Shown one piece after another: positions 3,054 through 42,938 of a DNA stretch of 64,000 bases. How positions within the stretch are numbered: the first letter of the stretch is position 1; the number at the start of each line of letters is the position of its first letter. A program made the position numbers and the translations under genes. The notes below the pieces were generated by a model that made no database searches, was not told the DNA's origin, and saw nothing but the letters and a program-made list of their open reading frames with translations. The DNA is taken from positions 44,425 through 108,424 of the forward strand of contig JAICYJ010000001.1 of the NCBI GenBank assembly GCA_025934255.1, in the 5' to 3' direction. This DNA is from Thermoleophilia bacterium (GTDB lineage Bacteria; Actinomycetota; Thermoleophilia; Gaiellales; JAICJC01).

Positions 3054-4486
3054 GCGCGGGCCTGACGGATGCGGATGTCGGGTAACGCTGCCATGGTGAC
3101 GATCAGGGCGGTCAGGATCCACGACGCCGGATCCTCGAAGTACGCATTGTAAAAGAGCGAGCTGGTCAGCACAGCGGCCAGCGCTGCGGCCAGGCCGAAC
3201 CGCAAAAGCCGCTCCGGGCCGGTGCGGAACGCCGCCCACGCGATCGATCCGATCAGCGCCAGGTAGGCGGCCAGGCCCAGCGGGCCCAGCTCGGCCAGCA
3301 CGGTCACCGGCGTGGTGTGCGAGGCGGCCGTGCGCGTGCGGTTCGGGTGGGCGCTGCCGGCCAGTGCTGCGCGGGCGAAGCCGCCCAGCCCGGCGCCGTC
3401 GATCGGATGGTGCTTGATCACGTGCCAGCCGTCCGAGAGCAGCACCGAGCGGCCGCTCGTCACCTGCGTGGTTGAGCTGCCGTGCGACGAGACCAGCAGC
3501 CCGGCCACCCCCACCACCGCCACCGCGACGGCCAGGCCCACCAGCAGCCGCCGCGGCCAGATGGTGGCGCCGATCAGCAGGGAGCCGGCCGCCAGCGCCA
3601 TCAGGCTGGACTGCGAGTAGGACAGGTACTGGGCCAGGAACAGCAGCGCCATCAGCCCCAGCAGCTGCGGCGTCGCCCGGCGGTACACCGCCACCGCGGC
3701 CAGCAGCACGATCGTGACCGCCATGAAGCGGCCGTACACGCTGGCGTCGTAGAACAGCGAGTTGACCCGGAAGAACGAGGCGTACTGGTTGCTGACGATG
3801 ATCTTCTGATTCCAGAACAGGTGGCGGCTCTCGTACTGCCAGAACGCCACCGCGGCGAACACCAGCGCCAGCGCCACGTCCGTGTAGAGCATCATGCGCA
3901 GCTGGCGGAGGGTTGGGCGCAGCGCCACGATCCGGGTCGCCAGGTAGCCGAACGGCAGATAGAAGAACAGCATCTGGACGCCGCCCTGGTGGGAGTCGGC
4001 GCTCCACAGCAGCGAGATCGCGCTCCAGCCGATCAGCGCCGCCATCGTCCAGCCCACCAGGCCCATCTGGGGCCGCTGCTCGCGGCCGAGGGCGAGCGTG
4101 TAGGCATGGGCCAGCGCGATTGCGAGCAGGACGCCGTAGAGCGGCACCAGCAGGTTGGCCTGCTGCCCGCCCGCGTGCAGCGGGATCCGGCCCGGCGCAG
4201 CCGCCACCACCGCCATCAGCGCCAGCGTCGGCTTGCGATGGGCGATCACGGCCGCCACCCCGATCGCGATCAGCCCCACCAGCAGGCCGGCGGCGGCCAG
4301 CGCGGGCCGTCGTCCCGCGTCCGTCCGCATGGTCGAGATGGGCGAGTGCAGCAGGTCGCCGGCCAGGATCAGCACGCCCGCGGCGTAGGCCGCGAACCCG
4401 GCCGTTCGCAGGCTGCGCCCGCCGGCGCAGAGCTGCAGGGCGAGCCCGGCGGCCGCGACGATGGCGCCCAGCGCGATGCCGCTCAC
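3050..4486 (-). CDS. O-antigen ligase / polymerase-like (Wzy_C) polytopic membrane protein
   Basis: 478 aa with about 10-12 hydrophobic segments. It has the long periplasmic-loop region typical of the O-antigen ligase family (QYLSYSQSSLMALAAG...HTTPVTVLAELGPLGL). ATGA overlap at 4483-4486. Confidence 0.8.
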   Translation of the reverse strand: MSGIALGAIVAAAGLALQLCAGGRSLRTAGFAAYAAGVLILAGDLLHSPISTMRTDAGRRPALAAAGLLVGLIAIGVAAVIAHRKPTLALMAVVAAAPGRIPLHAGGQQANLLVPLYGVLLAIALAHAYTLALGREQRPQMGLVGWTMAALIGWSAISLLWSADSHQGGVQMLFFYLPFGYLATRIVALRPTLRQLRMMLYTDVALALVFAAVAFWQYESRHLFWNQKIIVSNQYASFFRVNSLFYDASVYGRFMAVTIVLLAAVAVYRRATPQLLGLMALLFLAQYLSYSQSSLMALAAGSLLIGATIWPRRLLVGLAVAVAVVGVAGLLVSSHGSSTTQVTSGRSVLLSDGWHVIKHHPIDGAGLGGFARAALAGSAHPNRTRTAASHTTPVTVLAELGPLGLAAYLALIGSIAWAAFRTGPERLLRFGLAAALAAVLTSSLFYNAYFEDPASWILTALIVTMAALPDIRIRQARA

Positions 4487-5154
4487 GGGATCGTCGCCGT
4501 GAATGAGGGCGGGTTGGGGGTGCGGTTGCCGGCCTGATCGACCGCCACCATCTCGATCCGGTAGCGTCCGGGCGCGAGCTTGCCGTACGCCAGGTGCGCG
4601 ACGTGCGGGACCACGCGCTTCTGCAGGACGATGCGGCTGCCCTGGCGCACGATCATCAGCGCGTACCCGTTCCCCGCCGACCGCGTGTAGTGGACGGCCA
4701 GCGCCACACGGCCCTTGCGCACCTGGTCGATCCGCATCGTGGGCGGCATGGTGTCGACGATGATCGCGTCCGGGATGGTGACCTCACGGCCATCCGCGAG
4801 CGTCACGCGCAGCCGGTAGCGGCCGTCCGCGGCCTGCCCAGCCGAGTCGGTGCTGCCGTCCCAGTGGAGCACCACCGGGCCCTTCCGGTAGCGGCGGCCG
4901 GTGGCGAGCGTCTTTTGGACGTTGCCGTTGGCGTCGACGATCGCCAGGTCCAGGGCCTGTGGCTTTCGCAGCGTGAAGCGGAGCTTGGCGGCCGGCAGGC
5001 AGCCGGGATCGCTGCAGCCGGGGGAGAACGCCTGCCGCACGTGGGGATGGCCAACCGCCGAGTGGTGCAGCTTCAGCTGCTCGGCGCGCAGAAACGCCGC
5101 GGCGCAGAGGGCGATCAGAATCAGCGGGATGGCGGCGGCGGCGCGGTGGCTCAC
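4483..5154 (-). CDS. Membrane-anchored protein with FlgD Ig-like domain(s)
   Basis: N-terminal transmembrane anchor (AAAAIPLILIALCAAAFL). LDLAIVDANGNVQKTLATGRRYRKGPVVLHWDGSTDSAGQAADGRYRLRV is the FlgD-Ig pattern (xDxxGxxV...WDGxxxxGxxxxDGxY). GTG start at 5154, with TACAAT (5166-5171, minus sense) 11 nt upstream. Confidence 0.6.
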   Translation of the reverse strand: MSHRAAAAIPLILIALCAAAFLRAEQLKLHHSAVGHPHVRQAFSPGCSDPGCLPAAKLRFTLRKPQALDLAIVDANGNVQKTLATGRRYRKGPVVLHWDGSTDSAGQAADGRYRLRVTLADGREVTIPDAIIVDTMPPTMRIDQVRKGRVALAVHYTRSAGNGYALMIVRQGSRIVLQKRVVPHVAHLAYGKLAPGRYRIEMVAVDQAGNRTPNPPSFTATIP

Positions 5155-5201: not shown

Positions 5202-6134
5202 TTACGTCTGCCGCAGCTCAGCCGGGACCGGCGAGGGGGCCGGCGCTGAGGAGGCCGGCTTGGAGGCCTTGACGCCCTTCGCCATGTAGACCGCGGCCAC
5301 GAGCAGGATCACGGCGGCGCCGATCACGTACCAGTACGGGGCGGCGTCCAGCGTCTTCAGGCCGGAGGCGGCCAGCACCACCGCGATCGCGCCGCGCAGC
5401 ATCCGCTCGGGGGCGCGGTTGGTGAAGTGCGAGCCGATCAGGATGCCCGGGATCGAGCCGATCAGGATCGAGCCGACGACGCTGAAGTTGGGGGTGCCCC
5501 AGACCAGCGTGGCCAGGCCGGCCGCGACCGTCACCAGCATCGCGTGGAACAGGTCGGTGCCGACCACGCGGCGGGCGGCCAGCGGGAACAGCGTCACCAG
5601 CGTGAGGCCGAAGAACACGCCCGAGCCGACCGAGGTCAGACCCAGGATGAAGCCGAACACGACGCCGATGGTGACGGCCAGCGCCTTGTGCCAGGTGTCC
5701 AGCGGGCCGTCGGTGGGCAGGTTGTCGGAGCTCCACAGCTTCGGGATCGTGAGGAACGTGCGGGCGGCCACCGTGATGCCGACGATCACCAGCACGATGC
5801 CGATCAGGTTCAGCAGCACGCTGTTCACGTCGATGCCGACTCGGGGGAAGATCTCGTAGAGGGTGAACACGCCCAGGATGGCGGCGGGAACGCTGCCGGC
5901 GCCCATCCACAGGCCCAGCTCGGTGTTCACGTTCTTGAGCTGGTGGTGGCGGGCGGCTCCGAACATCTTCGTGATCGCGGCGTAGATCAGGTCGCTGCCG
6001 ACGGCGGTCGTCGGCGGGATGCCGAACACGGTGATCAGGATCGGCGTCATCAGCGATCCGGCGCCCATGCCGGTGGCCCCGACCAGCATGCCGACGACGA
6101 GCCCCGCTGCGATCATTCCGGTGTTGATGTCCAT
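5202..6134 (-). CDS. TauE/SafE (DUF81) family sulfite/organosulfonate permease, paralog 1
   Basis: 310 aa with two 4-TM halves. Contains GATGMGAGSLMTPIL, VGSDL and LTSVGSGVFFG...VVGTDLFH, which is the internally duplicated DUF81 signature. Confidence 0.9.
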   Translation of the reverse strand: MDINTGMIAAGLVVGMLVGATGMGAGSLMTPILITVFGIPPTTAVGSDLIYAAITKMFGAARHHQLKNVNTELGLWMGAGSVPAAILGVFTLYEIFPRVGIDVNSVLLNLIGIVLVIVGITVAARTFLTIPKLWSSDNLPTDGPLDTWHKALAVTIGVVFGFILGLTSVGSGVFFGLTLVTLFPLAARRVVGTDLFHAMLVTVAAGLATLVWGTPNFSVVGSILIGSIPGILIGSHFTNRAPERMLRGAIAVVLAASGLKTLDAAPYWYVIGAAVILLVAAVYMAKGVKASKPASSAPAPSPVPAELRQT

Positions 6135-6248: not shown

Positions 6249-7028
6249 CTAAAACAGGCCGAACAGTTTCAGGCCCGAGAAGGCCAGCACGGTGGCCAGC
6301 GAGCCGCGCAGCGCCCGCTCCGGGATCGACACCATTACCTGGGCACCGATCAGGATGCCGGGGATCGAGCCGCACATCAGATAGGCGACCGTCTCCAGAT
6401 GCACATCGGGGAGCAGGAAGTAGGAGGCGATCGCTGCCGGGATCGTCACCAGCGCCCCGTGATACAGGTCGGTGCCGACCACACGGTGTGCCGACAGCGG
6501 GAACAGCAGGATCAGGGCGATCCCGAAGAACGCACCGGCGCCGACCGACGTGATTCCAAAAACGTAGCCGAACACGACGCCGATCACGACCGCCGTGATC
6601 CTGTGATTGCGCGTCAGCGGCCCGTCGGCGACCGCCCCACTGCCGGTCCGCAGCCCGAACGCGCCGAAGGTGCGCACGACCACGATCACCGCGACCAGCA
6701 GCAGCGCTACCCCGATCGCGTACTTCAGCCGACTCTCAACGGCAGCGCTATCGGCCCCGATCAGCACGTGCAACGTGAACACCCCAGCCAGCGAGGCCGG
6801 CACGCTGCCCAGGGCCATCCACCAGGCAAGCTCCGTGTTGACGGTGTTCAGCGATAGGTGGCGCAGGCCGCCGACGCCCTTGGTGATGGCGGAGTAGAGC
6901 AGATCGGTGCCGACGGCGCCCACCGCGGAGGTGCCGAATAGGCCGATCAGCACCGGCGCCATCAGGGAGCCGGCACCCATCCCCGTCGCACCGATCAGCA
7001 CGCCGACCACCAGGCCGGCCAGGATCAG
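6249..7028 (-). CDS. TauE/SafE (DUF81) family permease, paralog 2 (start uncertain)
   Basis: Carries the same DUF81 motifs (GATGMGAGSLMAPVL, ITSVGAGAFFG, VVGTDLYH). The track ORF starts at the GTG at 7109, but that codon lies inside a terminator palindrome and upstream of the conserved promoter. The in-frame candidates downstream of the promoter are CTG 7028 (aligns with Met7 of paralog 1 and is preceded by GGGAG) and GTG 7010. Confidence 0.85.
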   Translation of the reverse strand: MILAGLVVGVLIGATGMGAGSLMAPVLIGLFGTSAVGAVGTDLLYSAITKGVGGLRHLSLNTVNTELAWWMALGSVPASLAGVFTLHVLIGADSAAVESRLKYAIGVALLLVAVIVVVRTFGAFGLRTGSGAVADGPLTRNHRITAVVIGVVFGYVFGITSVGAGAFFGIALILLFPLSAHRVVGTDLYHGALVTIPAAIASYFLLPDVHLETVAYLMCGSIPGILIGAQVMVSIPERALRGSLATVLAFSGLKLFGLF

Positions 7029-7068
7029 CTCTGCTCCCGTCGTCGCTCCCCCCGCCGCATTGCGAACA

Positions 7069-7096
7069 AGTCTAAGCGGAGTGGTGGGGAACGCAA
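7069..7096 (-). promoter_or_regulatory. Putative promoter of tauE paralog 2 (TTGCGT-N16-TAGACT)
   Basis: The minus-sense sequence is CTTGCGTTCCCCACCACTCCGCTTAGACTTGT. Hexamers and spacing match the paralog 1 promoter. Confidence 0.4.
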
Positions 7097-7126
7097 GCGA
7101 AGGCGGCACGATCGTGCCGCCTTCGC
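7097..7126 (-). terminator. 30-nt perfect palindrome (hairpin) 13 nt after the sat stop
   Basis: GCGAAGGCGGCACGATCGTGCCGCCTTCGC forms a 13-bp GC-rich stem around GATC. In minus sense it is followed by TTGCGTT, which is also the -35 of the next promoter. Confidence 0.45.
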
Positions 7127-7139
7127 CTGGCAGGTGCGG

Positions 7140-8306
7140 CTACCGGCCGCGGTATGCGGCGATCAGCACCTCGGCCACTTCGGGACGCGAGAACTCGACC
7201 GGCGGCACCTCTCCGTTGCCGAGCATCTCGCGCACCTTCGTGCCCGACAGGAACACGTGGTGGTCGGAGGGGTGCGGGCAGGTCTTGTTGGAGGCCATGT
7301 TCCCGCAGGTCTTGCAGAAGAACGTGTGGTCGAAGAACATCGGCTCGATGTCCAGCTCGTGCGGCTGGAACTCATCGAAGATGCGGTGCGCGTCGTAGGT
7401 GCCGTAGTAGCTGCCCACGCCGGCGTGGTCGCGGCCGACGATGAAGTGCGAGCAGCCGTAGTTCTTGCGACACAGTGCGTGCCACACGGCCTCCCGGGGG
7501 CCGGCGTAGCGCATCGCCGCGGGGAACACCCCGAGCACGGTGCGGTCGGCCGGGTAGTAGCTCTGCAGCAGCGTCTCGTAGCACTGCATACGCACGTTGG
7601 CGGGGATGTCGTCGCCCTTGGTCTTGCCGACCAGAGGGTGCAGCAGCAGCCCGTCGACGGTCTCCAGCGCGCACTTCTGGATGTACTCGTGCGCGCGGTG
7701 CACCGGGTTCCGCGTCTGGAAGCCGACCACGCGGCTCCAGCCCCGCTCGGCAAAGACCGCGCGGGTGTCCTTGGGATCGAGGTGGTACGCAGGGAAGGCC
7801 GGGCCGGGCCGCTTGAAGACCGTCACCGGGCCGCCCACCAGGGTGGGGCCCTCGGCGTAGATCTGCGCGACGCCCGGATGCTCCTGCTCGGTGGTGCGGT
7901 ACGTCCTGGCCGCCTCGTTCTCGCGGTCGACGCTGAACACCTCCTCCACGTCGAGCACGGCCAGCAGCCCACCGTCGGCGCTCTCCAGCGCCAGCCGGTC
8001 ACCGTCGGGGGCGTCGGACACGGACAACGTCACCGGCATCGCCCACGGCAGCCCGTTTGCGAGGTGCATGTTCTCGACCGAGGCGTCGTAGTCGGCCCGG
8101 GTCATGAACCCGGTCAGGGGCGACAGCGCCCCCGAGGCGATCATGTCCAGGTCGGCCGTCTGCTTGTCGCTCATCCGCACTCGCGGCAGCGACTCGGCCT
8201 CGGCCGCCAGGGCCGCCGCCTCATCACCGCTGACGGTGCGGTCGATCAGCTCGCCGCCGTGCGGCGCGATCACGTTCGACTTCGTCGATGCGGTCGCCTC
8301 CGGCAT
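7140..8306 (-). CDS. sat: Sulfate adenylyltransferase (ATP sulfurylase), homo-oligomeric Sat type
   Basis: 388 aa. Contains GFQTRNPVHRAHEYIQ and FIVGRDHAGVG, which are the ATP-sulfurylase active-site motifs. Confidence 0.95.
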   Translation of the reverse strand: MPEATASTKSNVIAPHGGELIDRTVSGDEAAALAAEAESLPRVRMSDKQTADLDMIASGALSPLTGFMTRADYDASVENMHLANGLPWAMPVTLSVSDAPDGDRLALESADGGLLAVLDVEEVFSVDRENEAARTYRTTEQEHPGVAQIYAEGPTLVGGPVTVFKRPGPAFPAYHLDPKDTRAVFAERGWSRVVGFQTRNPVHRAHEYIQKCALETVDGLLLHPLVGKTKGDDIPANVRMQCYETLLQSYYPADRTVLGVFPAAMRYAGPREAVWHALCRKNYGCSHFIVGRDHAGVGSYYGTYDAHRIFDEFQPHELDIEPMFFDHTFFCKTCGNMASNKTCPHPSDHHVFLSGTKVREMLGNGEVPPVEFSRPEVAEVLIAAYRGR

Positions 8307-8869
8307 CAGGCGACGGCCTCCTCTTTCTCGCGTGCGATGAAGCCGAGCTGCTCGAGCTGGGTGATCACGTGCTGCGCCGACTGCTCGGGCGAGCGGCCCT
8401 CGGTCTCGACCACGATCTCGGCGTGCTCGGGAGCCTCGTAGGGATCGGAGACGCCGGTGAACTCCTTGATCTCACCGGAGAAGGCCTTCGCGTACAGGCC
8501 CTTCACGTCGCGGCGGGCGCACTCGTCGAGCGACGTCGCCACGAACACCTCGACGAAGCGGTCGCCGATCATCTCGCGAACGGCGTCGCGGGTCTCGGCG
8601 TAGGGCGAGATGGCCGCCACGATCACGCCGGCACCGTGCCGGGTCAGCAGCTTCGCGACGAAGCCGATGCGCAGGATGTTGGCGTCGCGGTCCTCACGCG
8701 AGAAGCCGAGGCCCTTGCTGAGGTTGGTGCGGACGACGTCGCCGTCCAGGTGGTCGACCAGGATGCCGCGCCGTTCCAGCTCCGGGCCGACGATCTCCGC
8801 GATGGTGCTCTTTCCGGCCCCGGACAATCCGGTGAACCAGAGGGTGAATCCGTTGGTTTCATTCCCCAC
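8306..8869 (-). CDS. cysC: Adenylylsulfate (APS) kinase
   Basis: Contains the [18 protein letters not shown]-loop, [10 protein letters not shown] and [11 protein letters not shown]. The start is set at the GTG at 8869 (AAGGAA lies 9 nt upstream). The track extension to 8935 overlaps the cysH stop. Confidence 0.92.
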
Positions 8870-8913
8870 GAGTATTCGTTCCTTTCGTTGTATCGTCTGA
8901 CGCGTTGTAGCCG

Positions 8914-9618
8914 CTAGTCGCCGTGCAGGCCGCACTCGACCTTGCCCGTGCCCTTCCAGCGGCCCGTGCGCTCGTCGGCGCCGCTGTCCACCGAGGCGGT
9001 GCAGGGGACGCAGCCGATCGACGGGTAACCGTGGTCGTGCAGCGGGTTGTACGGGATGCCGTGCCTCCAGATGTAGCGCCAGACATCGCGGTTGGTCCAG
9101 TCGGCCAGCGGCTGCACCTTCACAACGCCGCGACGCTCATCTACCTCGATTTTGCGGGCACTTTCCCTGGTTGTCGACTGGTCGCGCCGAATTCCCGTGA
9201 TCCAGGCGTCCATGCCCTCCAGCGCCTGGCGCAGCGGCGCCACCTTGCGCATCGCGCAGCAGCCGTCGGGATCCCGCTCCCACAGCCGGTCTCCATGCTT
9301 GGCCGCCTGCTCGGCGACCGACAGCTCCGGCTCGATCCGCTGGAACCGCACCGGGTAGCGCTCGATCAGCTTCTGGCGGGTCTCGTATGTCTCGCGGAAC
9401 AGCAGGCCGGTGTCGAACTCGACCACCCGCACGTCGGGCTGGATCTCCGACAGCATGTGCACCAGCACCGAGCTCTGCTTCTGCCACGAGCAGGTCAGCA
9501 CCAGCCGCGGGTGGAACAGCTCCACGGCCACGCGCAGCACGTCCTCGGCGCTGCGCGACTCGAGATCGTCGGCCAGGCGGGCTGCCTCGGCCGGGCTGAT
9601 GGGAAGCGTGGTGCTCAT
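8914..9618 (-). CDS. cysH: Assimilatory adenylylsulfate/phosphoadenylylsulfate reductase, Fe-S (APS-reductase) type
   Basis: The sequence from MSTTLPIS... contains DGCCAMRKV and SIGCVPCT (the CC...CxxC cluster ligands) and the C-terminal KVECGLH catalytic motif. The ATG at 9618 forms an ATGA overlap with the comA stop. The remaining N-terminal part of track ORF 8914..10170 is junk. Confidence 0.92.
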
Positions 9619-10394
9619 GTGGCGGTGGGGATGTCTCGCAGCAGCAGGTCCGGCAGCGTGTCGGAGCGCAGCCCCAGCCGCAGCGTCTCCAGCGGGATCA
9701 CCTCGTCGTGCGGGATGTTGCCGAGGTTGCACTCGGGGCCGAGGTGCCGGATGAACCAGGCCTGCTGCTCCTTCTGGGGCGCCTCGAACAGCAGGCTGTC
9801 GGCCGGGATCTCGTGCACGATCTCGTCGATCAGGCCGCTGCGCACCTCGCCGGTGCCGCGGAAGATGCCGGCGGTGCCGGTCTCGCGGGCCTCGGTGATC
9901 ACCTTCCAGGCGCCCGCCTCCAGCTCCTCCTTGATCCAGGCCACCCACTGGTAGGGCGCGAAGATCGAGTCCTGGTCCTTCGAGCCCACCTCGGACAGCA
10001 CCACGAACTCGTCGGCCAGGGAGCTGATCAGCTCCTGCTTGCTCTCGCGCTCCATCTGCAGGGTGCCGTCGGACACCTCCACGTGGGTGAAGCCGTGGCC
10101 GCGCGTCCAGCGCCGGAACTCGTCCACGCGGCCGCGCGCGACCGCCGCCTCGAGCAGGGTGCCGCCGCACATGACGGGCGTCTCGTAGGAGTGGTAGAGC
10201 TTCACCTTCGCGGACAGGTTCTGCGTCACGTAGGACGTGCCCCAGCCCAGCTTGACCATGTCCACGTACTCCCCGGAGGCCTCGAACATGCCGTCCACCT
10301 CGGCCAGGGTCATGCCCTTGTCGATCACGTGGGTGAGCCCGCGCTCACGCGGCTTGGACGGGCGCATCGGTAGGCCCAGGAACTCTTCGACCAT
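9615..10394 (-). CDS. comA: (2R)-phospho-3-sulfolactate synthase
   Basis: ERGLTHVIDKG, VDMVKLGWGTSYV, CGGTLLEAAV, THVEVSDGT and VVLSEVGSKD line up with the ComA family (PF02679) signature as I remember it from Methanocaldococcus ComA. Confidence 0.9.
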   Translation of the reverse strand: MVEEFLGLPMRPSKPRERGLTHVIDKGMTLAEVDGMFEASGEYVDMVKLGWGTSYVTQNLSAKVKLYHSYETPVMCGGTLLEAAVARGRVDEFRRWTRGHGFTHVEVSDGTLQMERESKQELISSLADEFVVLSEVGSKDQDSIFAPYQWVAWIKEELEAGAWKVITEARETGTAGIFRGTGEVRSGLIDEIVHEIPADSLLFEAPQKEQQAWFIRHLGPECNLGNIPHDEVIPLETLRLGLRSDTLPDLLLRDIPTAT

Positions 10395-10397
10395 GGC

Positions 10398-10985
10398 TTA
10401 TAACCTCGAGTAGATGGTTTCCTCGAGCCGCTTGCGCGCCTCGACCTGGACGTTCTCATAGAGCGATTCACCGTGCGTGTCCATGCCCACGATCAGCGGG
10501 CCGAAGTCCTTGACGCGGAACTTCCAGAGGCACTCGGGCATCAGGTCCTCCCACTCGACCTGCTCGATCTCCTCGATCTGGGTGGTCTCGAGCGCGGCCG
10601 CGCCGCCGACGATCGCCAGGTAGACGCCGCCGTGCTCGCGCAGAGGCACCAGCGCCTCCGGCAGCAGGCCGCCCTTGCCGATGATGGCGCGGGCGCGGTG
10701 GTCGCGCACCAGCCCTTCGGTGAAGCGGCTCATGCGGGCGCTGGTGGTGGTGCCGATGCACATCGGCTCGTAGCGGCCCTCGCCCAGCTTGCGCACGTTG
10801 GGCGCGGTGTGCAGCAGCGCCGCGCCGCGAAGCGACATCGGCGGCTCGACGCCCTTGTCGAAGATGCGGATCTGGGTGGCGTCGCGGATGCCGATGATGT
10901 GGCCCTGGACGGTGACGGTGTCGCCGGCCCGGAACTCGCGCACGGCCGCCTCGTCGGTGGGGAAGGTGATCTCGTGATGCATCAC
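10398..10985 (-). CDS. Class I Fe-S hydro-lyase beta subunit (fumarate hydratase / tartrate dehydratase C-terminal-domain type)
   Basis: 195 aa. Contains RAIIGKGGL, VYLAIVGGAAAL and PLIVGMDTHGESLY, typical of Fumerase_C. GTG 10985 and ATG 10982 form a GTGATG overlap with the alpha-subunit stop. GGGAGG lies just upstream. Confidence 0.88.
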   Translation of the reverse strand: MMHHEITFPTDEAAVREFRAGDTVTVQGHIIGIRDATQIRIFDKGVEPPMSLRGAALLHTAPNVRKLGEGRYEPMCIGTTTSARMSRFTEGLVRDHRARAIIGKGGLLPEALVPLREHGGVYLAIVGGAAALETTQIEEIEQVEWEDLMPECLWKFRVKDFGPLIVGMDTHGESLYENVQVEARKRLEETIYSRL

Positions 10986-11902
10986 GCCTCCCGGTCGTAG
11001 TCGACGGTGCCGTCACTGAAGATGTGGGCGCTGGCGCGGCGGGCCGCCCAGCACTGGTAGTTCACGGCCACCGGATTCAACGTGATGTGGGTGTGGGCCT
11101 GCTCGACGTGCACCGACAGCACGGTGGTGTCGCCGCCCAGCCCCATCGGGCCGATGCCGGTCTCGTTCAGCAGCTCGAACAGCTCGCGCTCCAGCGCGGC
11201 CACGTCCGGATCCGGGTTGACATCGTCCACCGGCCGCGCGATCGCCTCCTTGGCCAGGTGCATCGCCAGGTCGGCGGAGCCGCCGATGCCGACGCCGACG
11301 ATGCCGGGCGGGCAGGGCTTGCCGCCGGCGCCGACGATCGAGTCGAGCACGAACCGCTTGATCGCCGAGACGCCGTCGGCCGGCACCAGCATCTTCAGAA
11401 AGCTCATGTTCTCGGAGCCCGATCCCTTGGGGATGCACTTCACGTCCAGGCCGTCCCAGTCCGGCACGAACTCCCAGTGGATGTGGGGGATCTTGTGGCC
11501 GGTGTTGTCGCCGGTCGGCACCCGGGTGAGCGTGTGCACGGTGTTCGAGCGCAGCGGGTGCTCCAGCGTGGCGCGGCGGGTACCCTCGCGCAGGGCCTGC
11601 TCGATGCGGGCCGGGTGCAGCGGGAAAAGCTCGCCCAGGCGCACGTAGTAGACGGCCAGGCCGGTGTCCTGGCAGACCAGGTTCTGGCGCTCGTCGGCCA
11701 CCGAGACGTTGGTGTTGATCGTCTCCAGGATGCGCTTGCCAACCTTGTGGGTCTCGGTCTCCATGGCGTTTCGGAGGGCGTCGCGCAGGTCCTGGGGGAT
11801 GTCCTTCAGCGACCACACGTAGAGGTGCGCGGCGGCGTCCTCGACGGTCTGCTGCAGGTCTGTGGTGGTGTCGATGGCCAAGGTGATCCTTTCAGCGGGC
11901 AT
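10982..11902 (-). CDS. Class I Fe-S hydro-lyase alpha subunit (fumarate hydratase / tartrate dehydratase N-terminal-domain type)
   Basis: Contains LVCQDTG, GGKPCPPG and NYQCWA (three cluster cysteines) plus IPKGSGSENMS. ATG 11902 is chosen as the start; the track ORF starts at GTG 11926. Either start overlaps the flavoprotein stop at 11892. Confidence 0.88.
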   Translation of the reverse strand: MPAERITLAIDTTTDLQQTVEDAAAHLYVWSLKDIPQDLRDALRNAMETETHKVGKRILETINTNVSVADERQNLVCQDTGLAVYYVRLGELFPLHPARIEQALREGTRRATLEHPLRSNTVHTLTRVPTGDNTGHKIPHIHWEFVPDWDGLDVKCIPKGSGSENMSFLKMLVPADGVSAIKRFVLDSIVGAGGKPCPPGIVGVGIGGSADLAMHLAKEAIARPVDDVNPDPDVAALERELFELLNETGIGPMGLGGDTTVLSVHVEQAHTHITLNPVAVNYQCWAARRASAHIFSDGTVDYDREA

Positions 11903-13106
11903 CCGCGGCGGCGGCGCGGCCGGCACGGCGCCCGAACACGGTGCAGTCGAGCAGGGAGTTCCCCATCATGCGGTTGCGGCCGTGCACGCCGCCGGTGATC
12001 TCACCGGCTGCGAACAGGCCCTCGACGGTGGTGCGGCCGTCCCGGTCGATCACCAGCCCGCCGTTCTGGTAGTGAAGCACGGGATAGGTCAGGATCGGCT
12101 CGGTCAGCGGGTCGATCCCGGCGTGGCGGTAGCGCCGCATCATGTAGGGCAGCACCTGGTCGGCCACCTCCGCCTCGATCTGCGTGGTGTCGAGCAGCAC
12201 CGCCGGGCGGCCGTCCGGCGTGGTCAGACCGCGGCCCTCGTCGCACTCCTTCACGATCGCCTCCGCCACCGTGTCGCGCGGCGCCAGCTCGTCGATGAAC
12301 CGCTCCCCCTTGCCGTTCACCAGCAGCGCGCCGTAGCTGCGCGTGGTCTCGGGGATCGAGTAGCCCTGCAGCGGTGGCGGCCAGGCGCCGCCGTTGGGGT
12401 GGTGCTGCAGCGAGTCCTCGTCGCGGGCCGCCGCTCCCAGCTCGCGGGCCAGCGCCGCCACCTCGCCGGTGGCGCCGGGCTGGTTGGTGGTGAGAACGCC
12501 ACGGCGGCTGGCTTCCGCATAGCAGCGGCCGCCGGCCGCCAGCACGACGGTGCCGGCCGCGATCGTGGCCGTCTGCCCCTCGCAGTCGACCGTCGCCGTG
12601 AAGTGGCCATTGGGCTTCGCGAACGCCGTCAGCGCCGCGTGACCGTGGATCTCGACGCCCTCGGCGGCCAGCGCGCCGCGCAGCGCGTGGGCGATGGCGT
12701 GGCCGGTGCGGTCGCCCACCTGCAGCAGGCGCCTGGTGGACGCGCCGCCGCAGCGGGCCAGCCGGTAACCGTCGCCCTCGCGTGAGAACTCGACGCCCAG
12801 CTGCTCCAGCCAGGCGATCGCCTCCGGCGCCTCCCCCGTCAGCACCGACACCAGCTCCATGTCGGCCGTGTCGTGCGAGGAGCGGTAGACGTCGGCGGCG
12901 TGCTGCTCGGGTGAGTCGTCGCCGCCGATGGCGGCCTGGATGCCGCCCTGGGCCTTGCCGGTGTTACAGGAGGCGGGCGAGCCCTTGGTGATCAGCACCG
13001 TCCGCGCGCCCTCACGGGACGCCGCCCACGCCGCGGCCAGGCCGGCGCCGCCGCTGCCGACCACGAGCACGTCCGCGCGTGTCGGAAGTGAGCTCACGGG
13101 CCGCAT
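11892..13106 (-). CDS. Soluble FAD flavoprotein of the succinate dehydrogenase / fumarate reductase / L-aspartate oxidase family (FAD_binding_2), lacking the C-terminal domain
   Basis: Contains the DVLVVGSGGAGLAAA dinucleotide fold, AQGGIQAA, DRTGHAIAHAL, LQHHPNGG, ELAPRDTV, LHYQNGGL and GEITGGVHGRNRMMGNSLLD. It is only 404 aa, and no Fe-S or cytochrome partner gene is adjacent. Confidence 0.85.
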   Translation of the reverse strand: MRPVSSLPTRADVLVVGSGGAGLAAAWAASREGARTVLITKGSPASCNTGKAQGGIQAAIGGDDSPEQHAADVYRSSHDTADMELVSVLTGEAPEAIAWLEQLGVEFSREGDGYRLARCGGASTRRLLQVGDRTGHAIAHALRGALAAEGVEIHGHAALTAFAKPNGHFTATVDCEGQTATIAAGTVVLAAGGRCYAEASRRGVLTTNQPGATGEVAALARELGAAARDEDSLQHHPNGGAWPPPLQGYSIPETTRSYGALLVNGKGERFIDELAPRDTVAEAIVKECDEGRGLTTPDGRPAVLLDTTQIEAEVADQVLPYMMRRYRHAGIDPLTEPILTYPVLHYQNGGLVIDRDGRTTVEGLFAAGEITGGVHGRNRMMGNSLLDCTVFGRRAGRAAAADAR

Positions 13107-13121
13107 TGTACAGAAGAAAAC

Positions 13122-13529
13122 CTAATCTTGAAAATAAGCGGAGCTTATATCCTGGATCTCCGCGAGGTCACCGGGAGCCGGGCGCCAGGGCAGCACCAGC
13201 GGGTCGCCGTGGTAGCGCGGGATCACGTGCACGTGGTAGTGGAAGACCGTCTGCCAGGCGGCCGCACCATTGGATTGCATGATCGTGACGCCGTCCGCCG
13301 CAAGGCCCGACAGGGCCCGGCCGGCGATGTCGCGCGAGACCAGCGCACAGTGCGCCAGGTCCTCGTCAGAGATGTCCTGGATGTCGCGGGCGTGGGCCCG
13401 CGGGATCACCAACGCGTGGCCGCGGGTGGCCGGGTTGATGTCCATGATCACGATCGCCCGCTCGTCCTCGTGGATGCGGATCGAGGGCAGGTCGCCGGCC
13501 ACGATCCGGCAGAAGATGCAGTCGTCCAT
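13122..13529 (-). CDS. HIT (histidine triad) family nucleotide hydrolase/transferase
   Basis: 135 aa. Contains CIFCRIV, the NPATRGHALVIP region and the triad HYHVHVIP. Confidence 0.9.
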   Translation of the reverse strand: MDDCIFCRIVAGDLPSIRIHEDERAIVIMDINPATRGHALVIPRAHARDIQDISDEDLAHCALVSRDIAGRALSGLAADGVTIMQSNGAAAWQTVFHYHVHVIPRYHGDPLVLPWRPAPGDLAEIQDISSAYFQD

Positions 13530-14588: not shown

Positions 14589-15707
14589 ATGCGAGTCCTG
14601 ATCACGGGTGGCGCCGGCTTCATCGGATCGCACCTGGCCGACGCCCTGCTGGCGCGCGGCCACGAGGTGCGGGCGCTCGACAACCTCGACCCCCAGGTGC
14701 ACCCGGCGGGCGAGCGGCCGGCCTACCTCGATCCCCAGATCGACCTGCGCGTGGGCGACGTTCGCGACCACGAGGCCGTGGCGGCCGCGCTCGAGGGCAT
14801 CGATCACGTCGTGCACTTCGCGGCTGCCGTCGGTGTCGGCCAGTCGATGTACGAGATCGAGCGCTACACGTCGATCAACTCGATCGGCGCGGCCGTGATG
14901 CTGGAGGAGATCTCGAAACGCCGCGACCAGCTGGCGCGGGTGCTGGTGGCCTCGTCGATGTCGATCTACGGCGAGGGCCGCTACCGCTGCGCCGAGCACG
15001 GGCTGCTGGCGCCGCAGGTGCGCAGCGACGAGCAGCTGGACGCGCGGCGGTGGGAGCTGGCCTGCCCGGACTGCGGCCGGCCGCTGGAGCCGCTGGCCAC
15101 CGGCGAGGACAAGCCGGTGCAGCCGATGTCGATCTACGCCGTGAATAAGCGCGACCACGAGGAGATGTTCCTGGCGATCGGCCGTGCCCACCGCCTGCCC
15201 ACGGTCGCCACGCGCTTCTTCAACGTCTACGGCGACCGCCAGGCCCTGTCCAACCCCTACACCGGTGTGGCCGCGATCTTCGGCGGCAGGCTGCTGAACG
15301 ACAACGCGCCGCTGGTGTTCGAGGACGGCCTCCAGAGCCGCGACTTCGTGCACGTCTCCGACATCGCCGCCGGCTGCGTGGCGGCGCTCGAGGGCGGCGG
15401 CGCCGACCATCGCGCCGTCAACCTGGGCACCGGCGTCTCCACCTCGGTGCTGGACGTCGCCCGCGAGCTGGCCTGCGGGCTGGGCAAGGAGCACCTGCAG
15501 CCCGAGGTCGTGAACAAGTTCCGCGCCGGTGACATCCGGCACTGCTTCTCGGACATCTCGCTGGCGCGGGAGACGCTTGGCTACGCGCCACGGGTCGAGT
15601 TCGCCGACGGCATGCGGGAGCTGCTGGGCTGGGTCGCGACGCAGCAGGCCACCGACTCGGTGGACGCCGCGGCCGACCGGCTGGCGGCCGCCGGCCTGAC
15701 CCGGTGA
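14589..15707 (+). CDS. NAD-dependent sugar-nucleotide epimerase/dehydratase (extended SDR)
   Basis: Contains MRVLITGGAGFIGSHL, the catalytic-pair region YAVNKRDHE, and FNVYG. Confidence 0.9.
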   Translation: MRVLITGGAGFIGSHLADALLARGHEVRALDNLDPQVHPAGERPAYLDPQIDLRVGDVRDHEAVAAALEGIDHVVHFAAAVGVGQSMYEIERYTSINSIGAAVMLEEISKRRDQLARVLVASSMSIYGEGRYRCAEHGLLAPQVRSDEQLDARRWELACPDCGRPLEPLATGEDKPVQPMSIYAVNKRDHEEMFLAIGRAHRLPTVATRFFNVYGDRQALSNPYTGVAAIFGGRLLNDNAPLVFEDGLQSRDFVHVSDIAAGCVAALEGGGADHRAVNLGTGVSTSVLDVARELACGLGKEHLQPEVVNKFRAGDIRHCFSDISLARETLGYAPRVEFADGMRELLGWVATQQATDSVDAAADRLAAAGLTR

Positions 15708-16678
15708 GCGGCACCCCCGCAATCACGATCTCGCTGGTCAACACGGACAACCGGGAGCTGCTGCTGGGCTGCCTGGCCTCGCTCGAGGGTGCCGCGCGCG
15801 ACACGGCCCTGCAGACGATCGTGATCGACAACGCCTCCCCCGACGGCAGCGCAGCCGCGGTGCGCGACGCGTACCCCGGCGTCGAGGTGGTCGAGCGGGA
15901 GCGGCGCCACGGCTTCGGCGCCAACCACAACGAGGCGATCCGAAGGGCGCAGGGCCGCTATGTGCTGATCCTGAACGAGGACACCGTCCTGCACGAGGGC
16001 ATGCTCGATCGCATGTGCCGGTTCATGGACCAGAACCCCGAGGTGGGCGCCTGCGGGCCGAAGATCCTGAACCCGGACGGCTCTCAGCAGCCGTCCGCCT
16101 TCCACTTCCCCACGCCCGGCCGGGTGGCGCTGACGGCCGTGACGCTGCAGCGGCGCGGCTGGATCCAGTCAGGCGGCGACCGCATCGCCCGCGTCGACTG
16201 GGTGTGCGGCGCCGCCATCCTCGCCCGCCGCGCGGCGCTGGCCGCCGTCGGCGGCTTCGACGAGCAGCTGTTCATCTACTCGGAGGATCCCGACCTGTGC
16301 CTGCGCCTGCGCGACGCCGGCTACGCGACGGCGTACTTCCCGCAGGCCTCGCTGGTGCACCTCGAGAACGCCAGCACCGGCGGGGTGCCGGAGCGGCGGA
16401 TCGCCGAGATGGAGCGCAGCCGCGCCGTCTACGCACGCAAGCACCACGGCGCCGCGGGCGAGCTGGCCGTGCGCGGCCTCACCGCGGCCACCTTCATGGC
16501 GCGTGCAGCGGCGGCGAAGGCGCTCCTGACCGTGCCCGGCGGCGAGCGGGTGAAGCGCGTCGATCCCGATGCGCCGGCCCGGTTCATGGCGCACGTTCGG
16601 GGCGCGATCCGTCCGCACGACGGCGAGGGCATCGCCGAGGCTGCGGCCGAGTTCAACGCGGAGCGCGCCGCCGGCTGA
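15704..16678 (+). CDS. Glycosyltransferase family 2
   Basis: Contains ISLVNTDNRELL, VIDNASPDGS, LILNEDTV (DxD-type) and FIYSEDPDLCLR. GTGA overlap with the epimerase at 15704-15707. Confidence 0.88.
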   Translation: MSGTPAITISLVNTDNRELLLGCLASLEGAARDTALQTIVIDNASPDGSAAAVRDAYPGVEVVERERRHGFGANHNEAIRRAQGRYVLILNEDTVLHEGMLDRMCRFMDQNPEVGACGPKILNPDGSQQPSAFHFPTPGRVALTAVTLQRRGWIQSGGDRIARVDWVCGAAILARRAALAAVGGFDEQLFIYSEDPDLCLRLRDAGYATAYFPQASLVHLENASTGGVPERRIAEMERSRAVYARKHHGAAGELAVRGLTAATFMARAAAAKALLTVPGGERVKRVDPDAPARFMAHVRGAIRPHDGEGIAEAAAEFNAERAAG

Positions 16679-18233: not shown

Positions 18234-19637
18234 TTAGACGGGCCGGTCGGCCACCACAAGCAGCGTCTCGAGCGTGGGATCGGAGCAGTACGCGACCCGC
18301 GTTCCGGCCGCGGCCTCGCGCTGCAGCGCCACCAGGATCTCCTCGGTGATCAGTTCGCCCGGCGCCAGCGCGGGGATGCCGGGCGGGTAGGGCGCCGCCG
18401 TCTCGGCCGCCACCCGGCCCACCGCGCGCCCGGCGGGGACGCGCTCGCGCGGCGCGAAGAAGGCCTCGCGCGGACTGATCGCGGCCACCGGCTGCAGCGA
18501 CCACACGCTGGAGGCGGCCAGCGGCCGGGCCGCGCCCCGCCGCAGCGCGATCGATCGCTCCAGCGCCTCCACCAGCCGTGCCACCGTGGCCGGCGTGTCC
18601 GCCAGCGTCACGATCGGCACCAGCGTGTCACGGTCGGCCATCTCCAGCCGCAGGCCGTCGGCCAGCAGGTCGGCCTCGACCTGGAACCCGTCGGCGCCGG
18701 TGCCGGCCAGCCCCAGCACCAGCTTTACCGGGTCGGATGCCTCGGAGACGTGCAGGCCGTCGATCCGGCGCAGCCGGGTGCGGGCATCGGCCACCAGCGC
18801 GATCGCCTGCTCCAGCAGCTGCTCGCCGCGGTCCTCGACCAGCTGGCGGGCGCGGTCGGTCGACGCCAGGATCGCCGCGGACGGGCTGGTCGTGTGCAGC
18901 AGCTCGAACGACTCCTCGACGCGGGCCAGGTCGAGCAGGCCGCCGCGGGCCAGCACCACCGAGCCCTGGGTGAAGGCCGTCAGCGTCTTGTGCGTCGAGG
19001 TGACCATGGCATCGGCGCCGCGGGCGATGGCGTGCGCAGGCAGCCCCGGGTGAAAGCCGAGGTGTGCGCCCCAGGCCTGGTCGACGATCAGCGGCACCGC
19101 GGCCTCGTGCACGGCGGCGGCGATCGCCTCCAGGTCGGACAGCATGCCCACGTAGCTGGGCTCGACCAGGAACAGCGCCCGCAGATCCGGGTGGTCGCGC
19201 AGCGCAGCGGCCACCGCGGCGGCCGGCACCTGCGTGGCAAGACCGGTCTGGGGATCGACGGCGGGCCGCACCCAGACCGGCTCCAGACCGGCCAGCACCA
19301 GCCCGCCGAACATCGATTTGTGCAGCGTCCGGGCGACGGCCACGCGCTCGCCCGGCCGCGCCGCCGCCAGCGCCAGCGACTGGTTGCCGTGCGTCGATCC
19401 GGCCACCGAGAACCGGCACAGGTCGGCGCCCCACAGCCGTGCCGCCAGGCGCTCCGCCCTGCCCAGCACGTCGCCGCTCAGGCGCGAGTCGTCGGCGCCC
19501 GAGACCAGCGGCAGGTCGAGCATCAGCAGCGGGTCGGCGACGCCGGGTGCGCGCTTGTGCCCGGGCACGGTGAAGGTGGTGCCGGAGTCGGCCAGGAACG
19601 CGTCGACCGCGTCCGCCAGTGGGGCGTCCGATGGCAT
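18234..19637 (-). CDS. PLP-dependent Orn/Lys/Arg decarboxylase family protein
   Basis: Contains FTVPGHKR, GSTHGNQS and AMVTSTHKTLTAFTQGS (PLP lysine motif), plus a C-terminal AAPYPPGIP region typical of the OKR_DC_1 family. Confidence 0.85.
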   Translation of the reverse strand: MPSDAPLADAVDAFLADSGTTFTVPGHKRAPGVADPLLMLDLPLVSGADDSRLSGDVLGRAERLAARLWGADLCRFSVAGSTHGNQSLALAAARPGERVAVARTLHKSMFGGLVLAGLEPVWVRPAVDPQTGLATQVPAAAVAAALRDHPDLRALFLVEPSYVGMLSDLEAIAAAVHEAAVPLIVDQAWGAHLGFHPGLPAHAIARGADAMVTSTHKTLTAFTQGSVVLARGGLLDLARVEESFELLHTTSPSAAILASTDRARQLVEDRGEQLLEQAIALVADARTRLRRIDGLHVSEASDPVKLVLGLAGTGADGFQVEADLLADGLRLEMADRDTLVPIVTLADTPATVARLVEALERSIALRRGAARPLAASSVWSLQPVAAISPREAFFAPRERVPAGRAVGRVAAETAAPYPPGIPALAPGELITEEILVALQREAAAGTRVAYCSDPTLETLLVVADRPV

Positions 19638-19664
19638 CGGCGCGGGAGGATACCGGCAGGCGGG

Positions 19665-20336
19665 TCAGGCCGAGCGGCGGAAGCGCTGGTCGACGGTGCC
19701 GGTGTGAGGCGCCTCCGCCGTCAGCGCCGAGATGAGGCGGCGATCGTCGTCGGTGATATGCAGGATCTCGCATCCCACCCGCTGGCGGCCGTAGTGCGAG
19801 GGGGAGGTCTGCAGGGCGCGCGCCTGCAGGCGCAGCAGCTGCCCGCGGATGGTCACCATCATGGCGAAGAAGTCGCCGGTGTGGAAGCTGCGGTCGGTGA
19901 CGAAGGCGACGCCGGTCGCCGACAGGTCGGCCAGGCGCACGTCGAACTCCTCGCCCTCTCCGATCCTGCGTGCGCCCAGCACATGCATCAGCGCCAGCTC
20001 CTCGACGGCGGCGCGCGGCGTGGTGCGCTCGCTCTCGCGCCGCAGCACGTCCAGCACCAGCAGCCGCACGCCGATCGTCGACTCCGTCTGGTGCAGGGTT
20101 TCGGCCACGGTCAGCGAGATGTCGTAGCCGCCGCCGCTGATCTCGTTCGTGCGCACCAGCAGGTCGAGATGGTCGCGCACCTGCGGCCGCGGCGCGTCGG
20201 CAAGGATGTAGACCCCGTCCTGCGACTGCAGCTCAAGCAGCACCACGCCGCCGCGGGCGGTGAACGCCTCGACCTTCGGCGTGGGTAGCTGCGACAGGAT
20301 GCTGACGGCCAGGTCGGCGAGCTTTGTGTCGTTCAT
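19665..20336 (-). CDS. PilZ domain protein (putative c-di-GMP receptor)
   Basis: LRRESERTTPR (RxxxR) followed by VRLADLSATGVAFV (DxSxxG) gives the two-part PilZ signature. An N-terminal domain of about 90 aa has unknown function. Confidence 0.75.
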   Translation of the reverse strand: MNDTKLADLAVSILSQLPTPKVEAFTARGGVVLLELQSQDGVYILADAPRPQVRDHLDLLVRTNEISGGGYDISLTVAETLHQTESTIGVRLLVLDVLRRESERTTPRAAVEELALMHVLGARRIGEGEEFDVRLADLSATGVAFVTDRSFHTGDFFAMMVTIRGQLLRLQARALQTSPSHYGRQRVGCEILHITDDDRRLISALTAEAPHTGTVDQRFRRSA

Positions 20337-42932: not shown

Positions 42933-42938
42933 GCTGCG

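Follow-up and report, generated by a model that had tools for sequence, protein, structure and literature searches.

A ComA-linked fumarase-like and flavoprotein gene cassette in Gaiellales with a predicted role in C3 sulfonate synthesis

Gene content of the locus

The window analysed here, a 64-kb stretch of contig JAICYJ010000001.1 (70% GC) from a Gaiellales-like actinobacterium, contains a minus-strand operon of about 12 kb in which a short flavoprotein related to fumarate reductase and a two-subunit, fumarase-like hydro-lyase (FumA-like and FumB-like) are encoded next to ComA, a phosphosulfolactate synthase. The operon comprises 14 co-directional genes in the order HIT, flavoprotein, FumA-like, FumB-like, ComA, CysH, CysC, Sat, two TauE, FlgD_ig, Wzy_C, PIG-L and ATP-grasp, and the stop and start codons of several neighbouring genes either share one to a few bases or are separated by only a few. 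The data covered were the window and the 10-kb flanks of related loci, and the Pfam scan of the window took in 58 open reading frames (ORFs), all but a few of those present; no second fumarase and no NadB appeared among them.

The flavoprotein gene (11892-13106, 404 aa) matches PF00890 over residues 12-385. It is followed by the gene for the FumA-like alpha subunit (10982-11881; PF05681, E 4e-92), which has 299 aa when read from a TTG codon at 11881, and by that for the FumB-like beta subunit (10398-10985, 195 aa; PF05683, E 6e-30), the start of which overlaps the FumA-like stop by 4 nt. The longest ORF of the alpha subunit extends to a GTG at 11926, but translation most likely begins at TTG 11881, 10 nt past the flavoprotein stop and with an AAGGA ribosome-binding site 6 nt ahead of it. 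Codon statistics (GC content at third codon positions of 0.94-0.98) identify all three as real genes, and all three are intact. A promoter scan returned two promoter-like sites against 0.6 expected, with terminator-like sites at chance level. A sigma-70-like match (TTTTCA, 18 nt, TACAAT) at 13105-13134 on the minus strand ends at the annotated flavoprotein start codon, and may be either a chance match or an internal promoter combined with a later flavoprotein GTG start at 13070.

Downstream of the hydro-lyase lies the gene for a ComA/YitD-type (2R)-phospho-3-sulfolactate synthase (9615-10394; PF02679, E 4e-88), whose best solved homologue is the B. subtilis phosphosulfolactate synthase 1U83 (YitD; E 2e-62). 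Next come three sulfate-activation genes, all of which exceed their NCBIfam cut-offs: the sulfite-making 3'-phosphoadenylylsulfate (PAPS)/adenylylsulfate (APS) reductase CysH (8914-9621; PF01507; NF002537, 274 against 154), the APS kinase CysC (8306-8935; PF01583; NF002059, 250 against 244) and the ATP sulfurylase Sat (7140-8306; PF01747 and PF14306; NF003166, 547 against 387).

Conservation of the cassette in Gaiellales

Related loci were sampled through flavoproteins of at least 50% identity (n=146), 82 of which had at least 3.3 kb of downstream and at least 1 kb of upstream flank. The closest relatives are all Gaiellales/Thermoleophilia metagenome-assembled genomes from soil and fresh water. 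ComA was located within 3.5 kb of the flavoprotein in every one of these 82 loci, and FumA/FumB stood between the two in 57. Sampling in the reverse direction, from FumB homologues, led back to the same cassette; the relatives listed in that search were all at least 79% identical, distant cassette-type FumB being outside its reach. Both samples agree with the premise of the original prediction, made from this DNA without database searches, that the pair does not sit beside ComA by chance.

Four locus architectures were found. Type A, the window type, carries the glycan genes along with the complete set for sulfate activation, while type B has an ATP-grasp gene on the opposite strand, then flavoprotein, FumA, FumB and ComA, with two PF01663 phosphoesterases nearby. 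Type C comprises flavoprotein, ComA, a PHP protein resembling 3',5'-nucleoside bisphosphate (pAp) phosphatase, and CysH, followed by FlgD_ig, Wzy_C, PIG-L and ATP-grasp, and type D comprises ComA, flavoprotein, a geranylgeranyl-reductase-like protein and ACT, followed by epimerase and GT2. Given these four architectures, ComA and the flavoprotein form the invariant core, and the hydro-lyase is frequent but not universal. In type D (L060 and about 20 freshwater loci) an ACT_7 protein follows the geranylgeranyl-reductase-family flavoprotein, a two-component system precedes, and no lyase occurs within 10 kb; this layout hints at a lipid-linked variant or at a different flavoprotein substrate.

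Distant cassettes with XcbC-like lyases

A full-library search recovered short (about 400-415 aa) flavoprotein homologues of 36-41% identity in the same cassette, on contigs of 34-54% GC from unrelated organisms. One of these loci, L081, has the order Wzy_C, flavoprotein, Fumerase (FumA), Fumerase_C (FumB), ComA, His_Phos_1, PIG-L and ATP-grasp. In four others a class II lyase (Lyase_1) stands in for the class I fumarase pair, in the orders Lyase_1, ATP-grasp, flavoprotein, ComA, GT2 and DegT (L088/L089); flavoprotein, Lyase_1 and ComA (L084); Bac_transf, epimerase, Wzx, flavoprotein, Lyase_1, ComA, ATP-grasp and Wzy_C (L173); and PAPS reductase, ATP-grasp, flavoprotein, Lyase_1, GT2 and DegT (L082). 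The cassette Lyase_1 proteins are 32-42% identical to Xanthobacter XcbC (E 1e-56 to 6e-85); with XcbD they share 24% identity or give no match. In a plasmid collection their best hit was Xaut_4873, which adjoins xcbB, followed by the lyases of Nocardioides JS614 and M. chubuense NBB4, with true ArgH ranking lower.

Experiments have shown that XcbC forms sulfoacrylate by eliminating phosphate from phosphosulfolactate (PMC9457059). The alternation of two unrelated lyase folds beside the flavoprotein and ComA is most simply explained if both deliver sulfoacrylate and the flavoprotein uses it. Sulfoacrylate is thus the likely substrate of the flavoprotein, which would reduce it to 3-sulfopropanoate. 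The replacement of the fumarase pair by an XcbC-like phosphate-lyase beside the same flavoprotein family strengthens the earlier suggestion that sulfoacrylate is the intermediate shared by the two enzymes; the other reaction suggested at that time, a NadB-like one on cysteate or sulfopyruvate, gains no support from gene context.

Sequence and active site of the flavoprotein

Pfam scans of the window ORFs agree with the initial description of the flavoprotein as a short protein without a C-terminal domain (PF02910) or a partner gene, neither an SdhB-like Fe-S subunit (Fer2_3/Fer4) nor a membrane anchor being present among the 58 ORFs. The motifs quoted for it (DRTGHA, HHPNG, APRD, HYQNGG and HGRNRMMGNSLLD) are present in the translation, and the E. 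coli FrdA tetrad H232/R287/H355/R390 is kept as H236/R277/H345/R379 and is invariant in the family. The claim that the whole SdhA/FrdA/NadB motif set is retained did not survive closer comparison: the substrate-contacting T244 of FrdA is Pro252 here, the hinge Thr (HPT; FrdA Thr234) is Asn, RSYGA stands where RGEGG is expected, the covalent-FAD (flavin adenine dinucleotide) His44 of FrdA is Asn48 (Asn or Lys across the family), and the active-site loop has 15 residues against 11 in FrdA, making it 4 longer. Tomasiak and colleagues are said to have reported in 2008 that T244 hydrogen-bonds the substrate and that T234 hydrogen-bonds the proton shuttle.

The Pro substitution marks a distinct group. 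In the 119-sequence alignment used to survey active-site residues of the family, Pro-Glu (P252-E253) occurs in all 16 short members, whereas 96 of the 103 others have Thr-Glu or Ser-Glu, and the short 'PE' flavoproteins are separate in a rough tree. The window protein scores about 250 bits on the NadB, TfrA and SdhA/FrdA models alike and falls under every NCBIfam equivalog cut-off, reaching 250 against 452 on the nadB model TIGR00551, of which positions 2-387 of 489 are matched. Its AlphaFold model (predicted local distance difference test score, pLDDT, 68.7; predicted template modelling score, pTM, 0.73) has a fold that matches FrdA (1kf6, TMq 0.67) and SdhA. Non-covalent FAD in the fumarate reductase family goes with enoate reduction and not with succinate-type oxidation. 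The catalytic, carboxylate-proximal half of the site is kept and the cover of the distal group is remodelled, as would be expected if the distal carboxylate had become a sulfonate, and the flavoprotein is proposed on these residue patterns to be a sulfoacrylate reductase making 3-sulfopropanoate. Homologues are publicly annotated as 'L-aspartate oxidase' or 'succinate dehydrogenase/fumarate reductase flavoprotein', names that their genomic context suggests are wrong.

The nearest relatives outside the cassette (38-46% identity, with about 80 extra N-terminal residues) were considered as having the same function and rejected, as they keep the Thr/Ser and none of seven lies near ComA. They are a separate family (P0127, P0131, P0139-P0144; L090, L156-L170), characterised by a conserved 'FHPDY...G.N.G' motif in the extension of about 80 aa, and one member carries a fused ferredoxin-like domain. 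An archaeal flavoprotein relative (P0146) has no cassette around its gene.

Sequence and active site of the fumarase-like pair

The hydro-lyase active site was aligned to the fumarate hydratases (FH) of M. jannaschii (MjFH, 7XKY) and L. major (LmFH, 5L2R), with LmFH numbering. The alpha subunit is 43% identical to MjFH alpha, and its three predicted Fe-S cysteines (LVCQDTG, GGKPCPPG and NYQCWA) are all present and align with the MjFH Cys positions. The GKGG and MDTHG motifs expected in the beta subunit were likewise found in the FumB-like translation, and the Q-D of CQDTG, the Arg of LRxN, the Arg of (A/I)RD, TTSAR and GKGG are all kept in the hydro-lyase. Roles of class I fumarase residues were taken from bioRxiv 10.1101/2023.06.17.545066. 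The KGXGS proximal loop reads KGSGS in the alpha subunit, compared with AGGGC in L-tartrate dehydratase, which makes the enzyme one of the S-malate type and not an L-tartrate dehydratase. Beta homologues are publicly annotated as 'L(+)-tartrate dehydratase beta subunit' (JGI), but the KGSGS motif and the genomic context suggest that this name is wrong.

The beta subunit scores 157 against a cut-off of 269 on the FH-beta equivalog NF004708 and passes only a broad domain model, TIGR00723 (149.7 against 145.15). Between the window and the L081 cassette the beta subunits share 60% identity, compared with 35-43% identity between the window protein and archaeal FH beta. Beside three substrate-contacting motifs there are substitutions that are invariant among the cassettes (GPTTSAR to GTTTSAR, ARD to IRD and LRPN to LRSN). 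These second-shell changes and the low FH-beta score are compatible with a retuned specificity of the hydro-lyase, without being proof of it. By the Cahn-Ingold-Prelog rules, the substituents of (2R)-3-sulfolactate are placed in space like those of (2S)-malate. As a steric analogue of L-malate, (R)-sulfolactate could plausibly be taken by a fumarase-like site, and the FumAB-like pair is proposed to be an (R)-sulfolactate dehydratase making sulfoacrylate.

The phosphate step

The product of ComA is phosphorylated, and the lack of a phosphatase in the operon, already remarked upon in the original prediction, extends to all 58 window ORFs scanned. In L081, the only distant FumAB-type cassette, a His_Phos_1 histidine phosphatase directly follows ComA, whereas no phosphatase is seen in any of the four XcbC-type cassettes; relatives of this His_Phos_1 were found neither in the window nor in any Gaiellales locus. 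Two genes of the alkaline-phosphatase-superfamily phosphodiesterase family PF01663 lie beside the type B unit (L171 2523-5584, L172 2019-5082) and are candidate phosphosulfolactate phosphatases. The distribution of phosphatases in L081 and type B, as against the XcbC-type cassettes, favours the order phosphatase, sulfolactate, dehydration by FumAB, from few samples, and makes direct phosphate elimination by FumAB less likely.

The PHP-domain gene in the gap between ComA and CysH of type C loci (L046 12047-12862) was considered as an analogue of ComB and rejected, its nearest NCBIfam match being pAp phosphatase. This match makes it more likely a helper of CysH that removes PAP, the by-product of PAPS reductase.

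Glycan genes and fate of the product

The window operon continues past the sulfite genes into a Wzy_C (O-antigen ligase/polymerase-like) membrane protein (3050-4486; PF04932), a PIG-L/LmbE-family de-N-acetylase (2418-3053; PF02585, with weak matches to BshB and LmbE structures) and an ATP-grasp carboxylate-amine ligase (1390-2421; PF15632 and PF21360), which are co-conserved with the cassette across phyla; this extension of the operon was overlooked in the original prediction. The PIG-L protein is 54-56% identical to that of L081, and the ATP-grasp protein is 42% identical to the product of the gene after PIG-L in the same locus. Wzy_C flanks the distant cassettes L081 and L173 as well. ATP-grasp genes accompany the flavoprotein in the window, in L081, L082, L083, L088 and L173 and in type B loci, and the genes around them include PIG-L, DegT, glycosyltransferases of families GT2 and GT4, Wzx, Wzy_C and Bac_transf. 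This co-conservation of ATP-grasp within glycan clusters points to linkage of the sulfo-acid to a sugar amine through an amide bond, and suggests that the ATP-grasp enzyme makes the bond in a surface glycan; PIG-L is proposed to free the amine.

Export of free 3-sulfopropanoate by the two TauE/SafE-family anion permeases of the operon (6249-7109, PF01925, E 2e-35; 5202-6134, PF01925, E 8e-41) is an alternative fate. TauE proteins might instead import sulfate (cf. C. glutamicum CysZ). One TauE has been annotated as a probable 3-sulfopropanoate exporter (PMC11489063).

Taken as a whole, the cassette may represent a widespread pathway that decorates surface glycans with 3-sulfopropanoyl groups made from sulfite and phosphoenolpyruvate (PEP), both in Gaiellales/Thermoleophilia and in unrelated low- and mid-GC bacteria with the XcbC variant; this is held tentatively, with slightly more doubt than confidence.

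Proposed pathway and alternative explanations

The conversion of sulfate and PEP into a C3 sulfonic acid by the cassette is held with moderate confidence, on comparative-genomic support in which residue patterns and gene context add to family membership. In the first steps Sat, CysC and CysH, recognised by their families, would make sulfite, and ComA, about 50% identical to B. subtilis YitD, would join sulfite and PEP to give (2R)-phosphosulfolactate. Loss of the phosphate would follow, most likely through a phosphatase whose gene is unlinked to the operon here, and the resulting (R)-sulfolactate would be dehydrated to (E)-3-sulfoacrylate by the [4Fe-4S] FumAB-like hydro-lyase. The flavoprotein, with non-covalent FAD, would reduce the C2=C3 bond of sulfoacrylate to give 3-sulfopropanoate, with Arg277 as predicted proton donor, His345/Arg379 as a carboxylate clamp and the Pro252 loop fitting the sulfonate. 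In the least certain step, the ATP-grasp enzyme would join the carboxylate to the sugar amine freed by PIG-L in a Wzy-type surface-glycan pathway, and reduction and ligation could occur in either order.

Several observations weigh against this proposal. All first-shell residues of the hydro-lyase (Q134, D135, R173, KGXGS, R421, T467/468, R471 and K491) are those of genuine fumarase, and the alpha subunit passes the NCBIfam fumarate-hydratase model NF004885 (317 against a cut-off of 276). Because of this identity sulfonate specificity of the hydro-lyase is not demonstrable from sequence alone; of the substrate contacts whose comparison with carboxylate enzymes had been suggested earlier, the one in the flavoprotein differs (T244 to Pro) and the first shell of the hydro-lyase does not. 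The flavoprotein model drops under a pLDDT of 50 precisely at the active-site loops, so that it confirms the fold and is of no use for pocket analysis. No electron-donor partner gene is evident for the flavoprotein, and no phosphatase of the ComB/YitC kind or any other is linked among the window ORFs scanned. In 25 of the 82 loci ComA and the flavoprotein occur with no lyase of either kind within 10 kb; these loci would need sulfoacrylate from an unlinked enzyme, or another substrate for the flavoprotein. A literature search turned up no natural glycan with a 3-sulfopropanoyl group.

An alternative that retains most of the pathway is elimination of phosphate from phosphosulfolactate by the hydro-lyase itself, giving sulfoacrylate in the manner of XcbC with no need of a phosphatase. 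FumAB and the XcbC-like lyases do occupy the same cassette position, neither the window nor the type A Gaiellales loci carry a phosphatase, and XcbC provides a precedent (PMC9457059). However, in a first shell identical to that of fumarase the C2-OH is bound by the unique Fe and contacted by the G of KGXGS, leaving no obvious room for an ester, and phosphatase-type genes go with FumAB (His_Phos_1 directly after ComA in L081, the two PF01663 phosphoesterases in type B loci) and are missing from all four XcbC-type cassettes, so this variant is considered unlikely. The flavoprotein could also be a dehydrogenase that oxidises the C2-C3 bond of (phospho)sulfolactate to (phospho)enol-sulfopyruvate, as a flavin analogue of ComC with the lyase as a side branch, supplying reactions of sulfopyruvate, cysteate or sulfoacetaldehyde. 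Malate is oxidised by complex II enzymes to enol-oxaloacetate, the Gln in the AQGG of the flavoprotein is that of SdhA and NadB, and the 25 lyase-less loci would be accounted for. Such a role nevertheless leaves unexplained why two unrelated enoate-forming lyases are repeatedly found beside the flavoprotein, no enzyme that uses sulfopyruvate, be it ComDE, an aminotransferase or another, is conserved alongside the cassette, and non-covalent FAD speaks against oxidation of the succinate dehydrogenase type; it is judged quite improbable.

Much less probable than either is that the genes encode an ordinary fumarase together with either an L-aspartate oxidase or a soluble fumarate reductase, placed near ComA by chance or acting as a redox pair on fumarate. 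The canonical fumarase active site, the alpha subunit score above its equivalog cut-off and the public names L-aspartate oxidase and tartrate dehydratase are what this explanation would lead one to find. It is at odds with the adjacency to ComA in 82 of 82 close loci and in distant cassettes of varied GC and several gene orders, with a flavoprotein that scores 250 bits against the 452 of nadB and has lost the C-terminal domain and the substrate-contacting Thr, and with the replacement of the fumarase pair in four cassettes by an XcbC-like lyase, an enzyme without a part in fumarate metabolism. Nor was any nadA or nadC found among the window ORFs scanned. A variant coenzyme M (CoM) pathway would account for homologues of the first two Xcb steps, namely ComA here and the XcbC-like lyases in the distant cassettes, but XcbD-like lyase, XcbE-like pyridoxal phosphate (PLP) desulfhydrase and ComDE are missing from the window ORFs scanned and from the cassettes, and the surrounding genes belong to glycan biosynthesis and not to alkene or methane metabolism, which leaves it the least probable explanation of all.

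Comparison with known systems

The bacterial CoM pathway of Xanthobacter autotrophicus Py2 (PMC9457059) likewise starts with a ComA-type enzyme (XcbB) and continues to sulfoacrylate. It differs in that the window has a class I Fe-S hydro-lyase where XcbC would be and, after sulfoacrylate, the cassette has the flavoprotein and ATP-grasp instead of XcbD (cysteine addition), XcbE and XcbA. No Lyase_1 (XcbC/XcbD) or XcbE-like genes were present among the window ORFs scanned, and XcbA, which has no family model, was not searched by sequence. The B. subtilis sporulation operon yisZ-yitABCD, which makes sulfolactate with Sat, APS kinase, PAPS reductase and a YitD-type ComA, is similar in combining dedicated sulfate-activation genes with a YitD-type ComA. 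Unlike that operon, the window has no ComB (YitC), and the additional FumAB-like pair and flavoprotein imply a product beyond sulfolactate.

Class I FH with two subunits (7XKY, 5L2R) resemble the hydro-lyase in fold family, Cys ligands, KGXGS, catalytic Thr/Asp and substrate-binding Arg/Lys/Gln, and the window pair is set apart by a beta subunit under the FH-beta cut-off, the GTTTSAR, IRD and LRSN changes, and a sulfonate operon. NadB, flavocytochrome c3, Osm1/Frd1 and urocanate reductase share with the flavoprotein the FAD and capping fold, the His-Arg-His-Arg tetrad and the lack of a covalent-FAD His, and soluble members of the fumarate reductase family (NadB and others) reduce alpha,beta-unsaturated carboxylates. 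Among these soluble proteins the window flavoprotein is the shortest (404 aa), without a C-terminal, cytochrome or other donor domain, and differs in having Pro for Thr and a loop longer by 4 residues.

A chemical precedent for the predicted amide is found in misNOPQ, in which a ComA homologue supplies a 2-sulfoacetyl group that is amide-linked in misaugamycin-B (PMC9136965). Both systems would feed a ComA-derived sulfonated acyl group into an amide with an amine, but the partners of the misNOPQ system are an acyl carrier protein, an acyl-CoA ligase and a glyoxalase, its product is C2 and its acceptor is a peptide and not a glycan. In Roseovarius nubinhibens a catabolic route from 3-sulfopropanoate by way of sulfoacrylate to sulfolactate has been proposed in a thesis cited in PMC11489063, where no genes are named. 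As outlined there, it has the same three intermediates and the same succinate-fumarate-malate logic in the opposite direction, that of degradation. The dedicated sulfate-activation genes and ComA indicate that the direction in the cassette is synthesis.

Implications

Neither this cassette, nor a sulfoacrylate reductase, nor an Fe-S enzyme that dehydrates sulfolactate was found described in the literature. If correct, the proposed pathway would add two new activities, those of a class I fumarase-family (R)-sulfolactate dehydratase and of a minimal flavin sulfoacrylate reductase, and class I and class II 'fumarase' folds would be seen to replace each other in one pathway. Biosynthetic carbon-sulfonates are known for few products (CoM, sulfolactate, sulfoquinovose, capnine/cysteate and sulfoacetyl), to which a new branch from the ComA product would be added, giving a function to thousands of genes named 'L-aspartate oxidase' and 'tartrate dehydratase' and testable substrates for a minimal fumarate-reductase-like flavoenzyme and a fumarase look-alike. 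Malate, fumarate and succinate chemistry would have been recruited for the analogues sulfolactate, sulfoacrylate and sulfopropanoate with hardly any change in the first shell. Abundant and mostly uncultured actinobacteria of soil and lakes would carry permanently anionic, sulfonated surface glycans, with a bearing on envelope biology, phage interactions and their part in the organosulfur cycle.

Other features of the window

The first gene of the operon in this lineage encodes a HIT-family protein (13122-13529; PF01230, E 7.5e-23), which is HinT-like in NCBIfam, though under the cut-off, and is upstream of the flavoprotein in 29 loci; its role is possibly the turnover of adenylylsulfate or a related nucleotide. 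The FlgD_ig-domain protein (4483-5154; PF13860) between the permeases and Wzy_C recurs beside the cassette in Gaiellales. Divergent from the operon, on the plus strand, are homologues of an NAD-dependent sugar epimerase/dehydratase (14589-15707) and of a GT2-type glycosyltransferase (15704-16678), both labelled from sequence reading. By tblastn, homologues of these two ORFs recur in the vicinity of the flavoprotein and ComA in three types of locus, and the two genes probably belong to the same glycan locus.

Further upstream on the minus strand are a PLP enzyme of the Orn/Lys/Arg-decarboxylase family and a PilZ-domain protein (18234-20336), which also lie upstream of the cassette in the closest relatives, and two large NHL-repeat/beta-propeller proteins (20444-24572), one with a PPC domain, which are probably secreted or at the surface. 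At 39223-43604 on the plus strand, genes for an acyl-CoA dehydrogenase and a family III CoA-transferase are grouped with those for an HpcH/HpaI (citrate-lyase-beta-like) aldolase and a TetR regulator, a combination reminiscent of CoA-dependent pathways that act on a C5-dicarboxylate, for example itaconate or mesaconate. A 1679-aa ORF at 44808-49847 on the minus strand has strong coding statistics.

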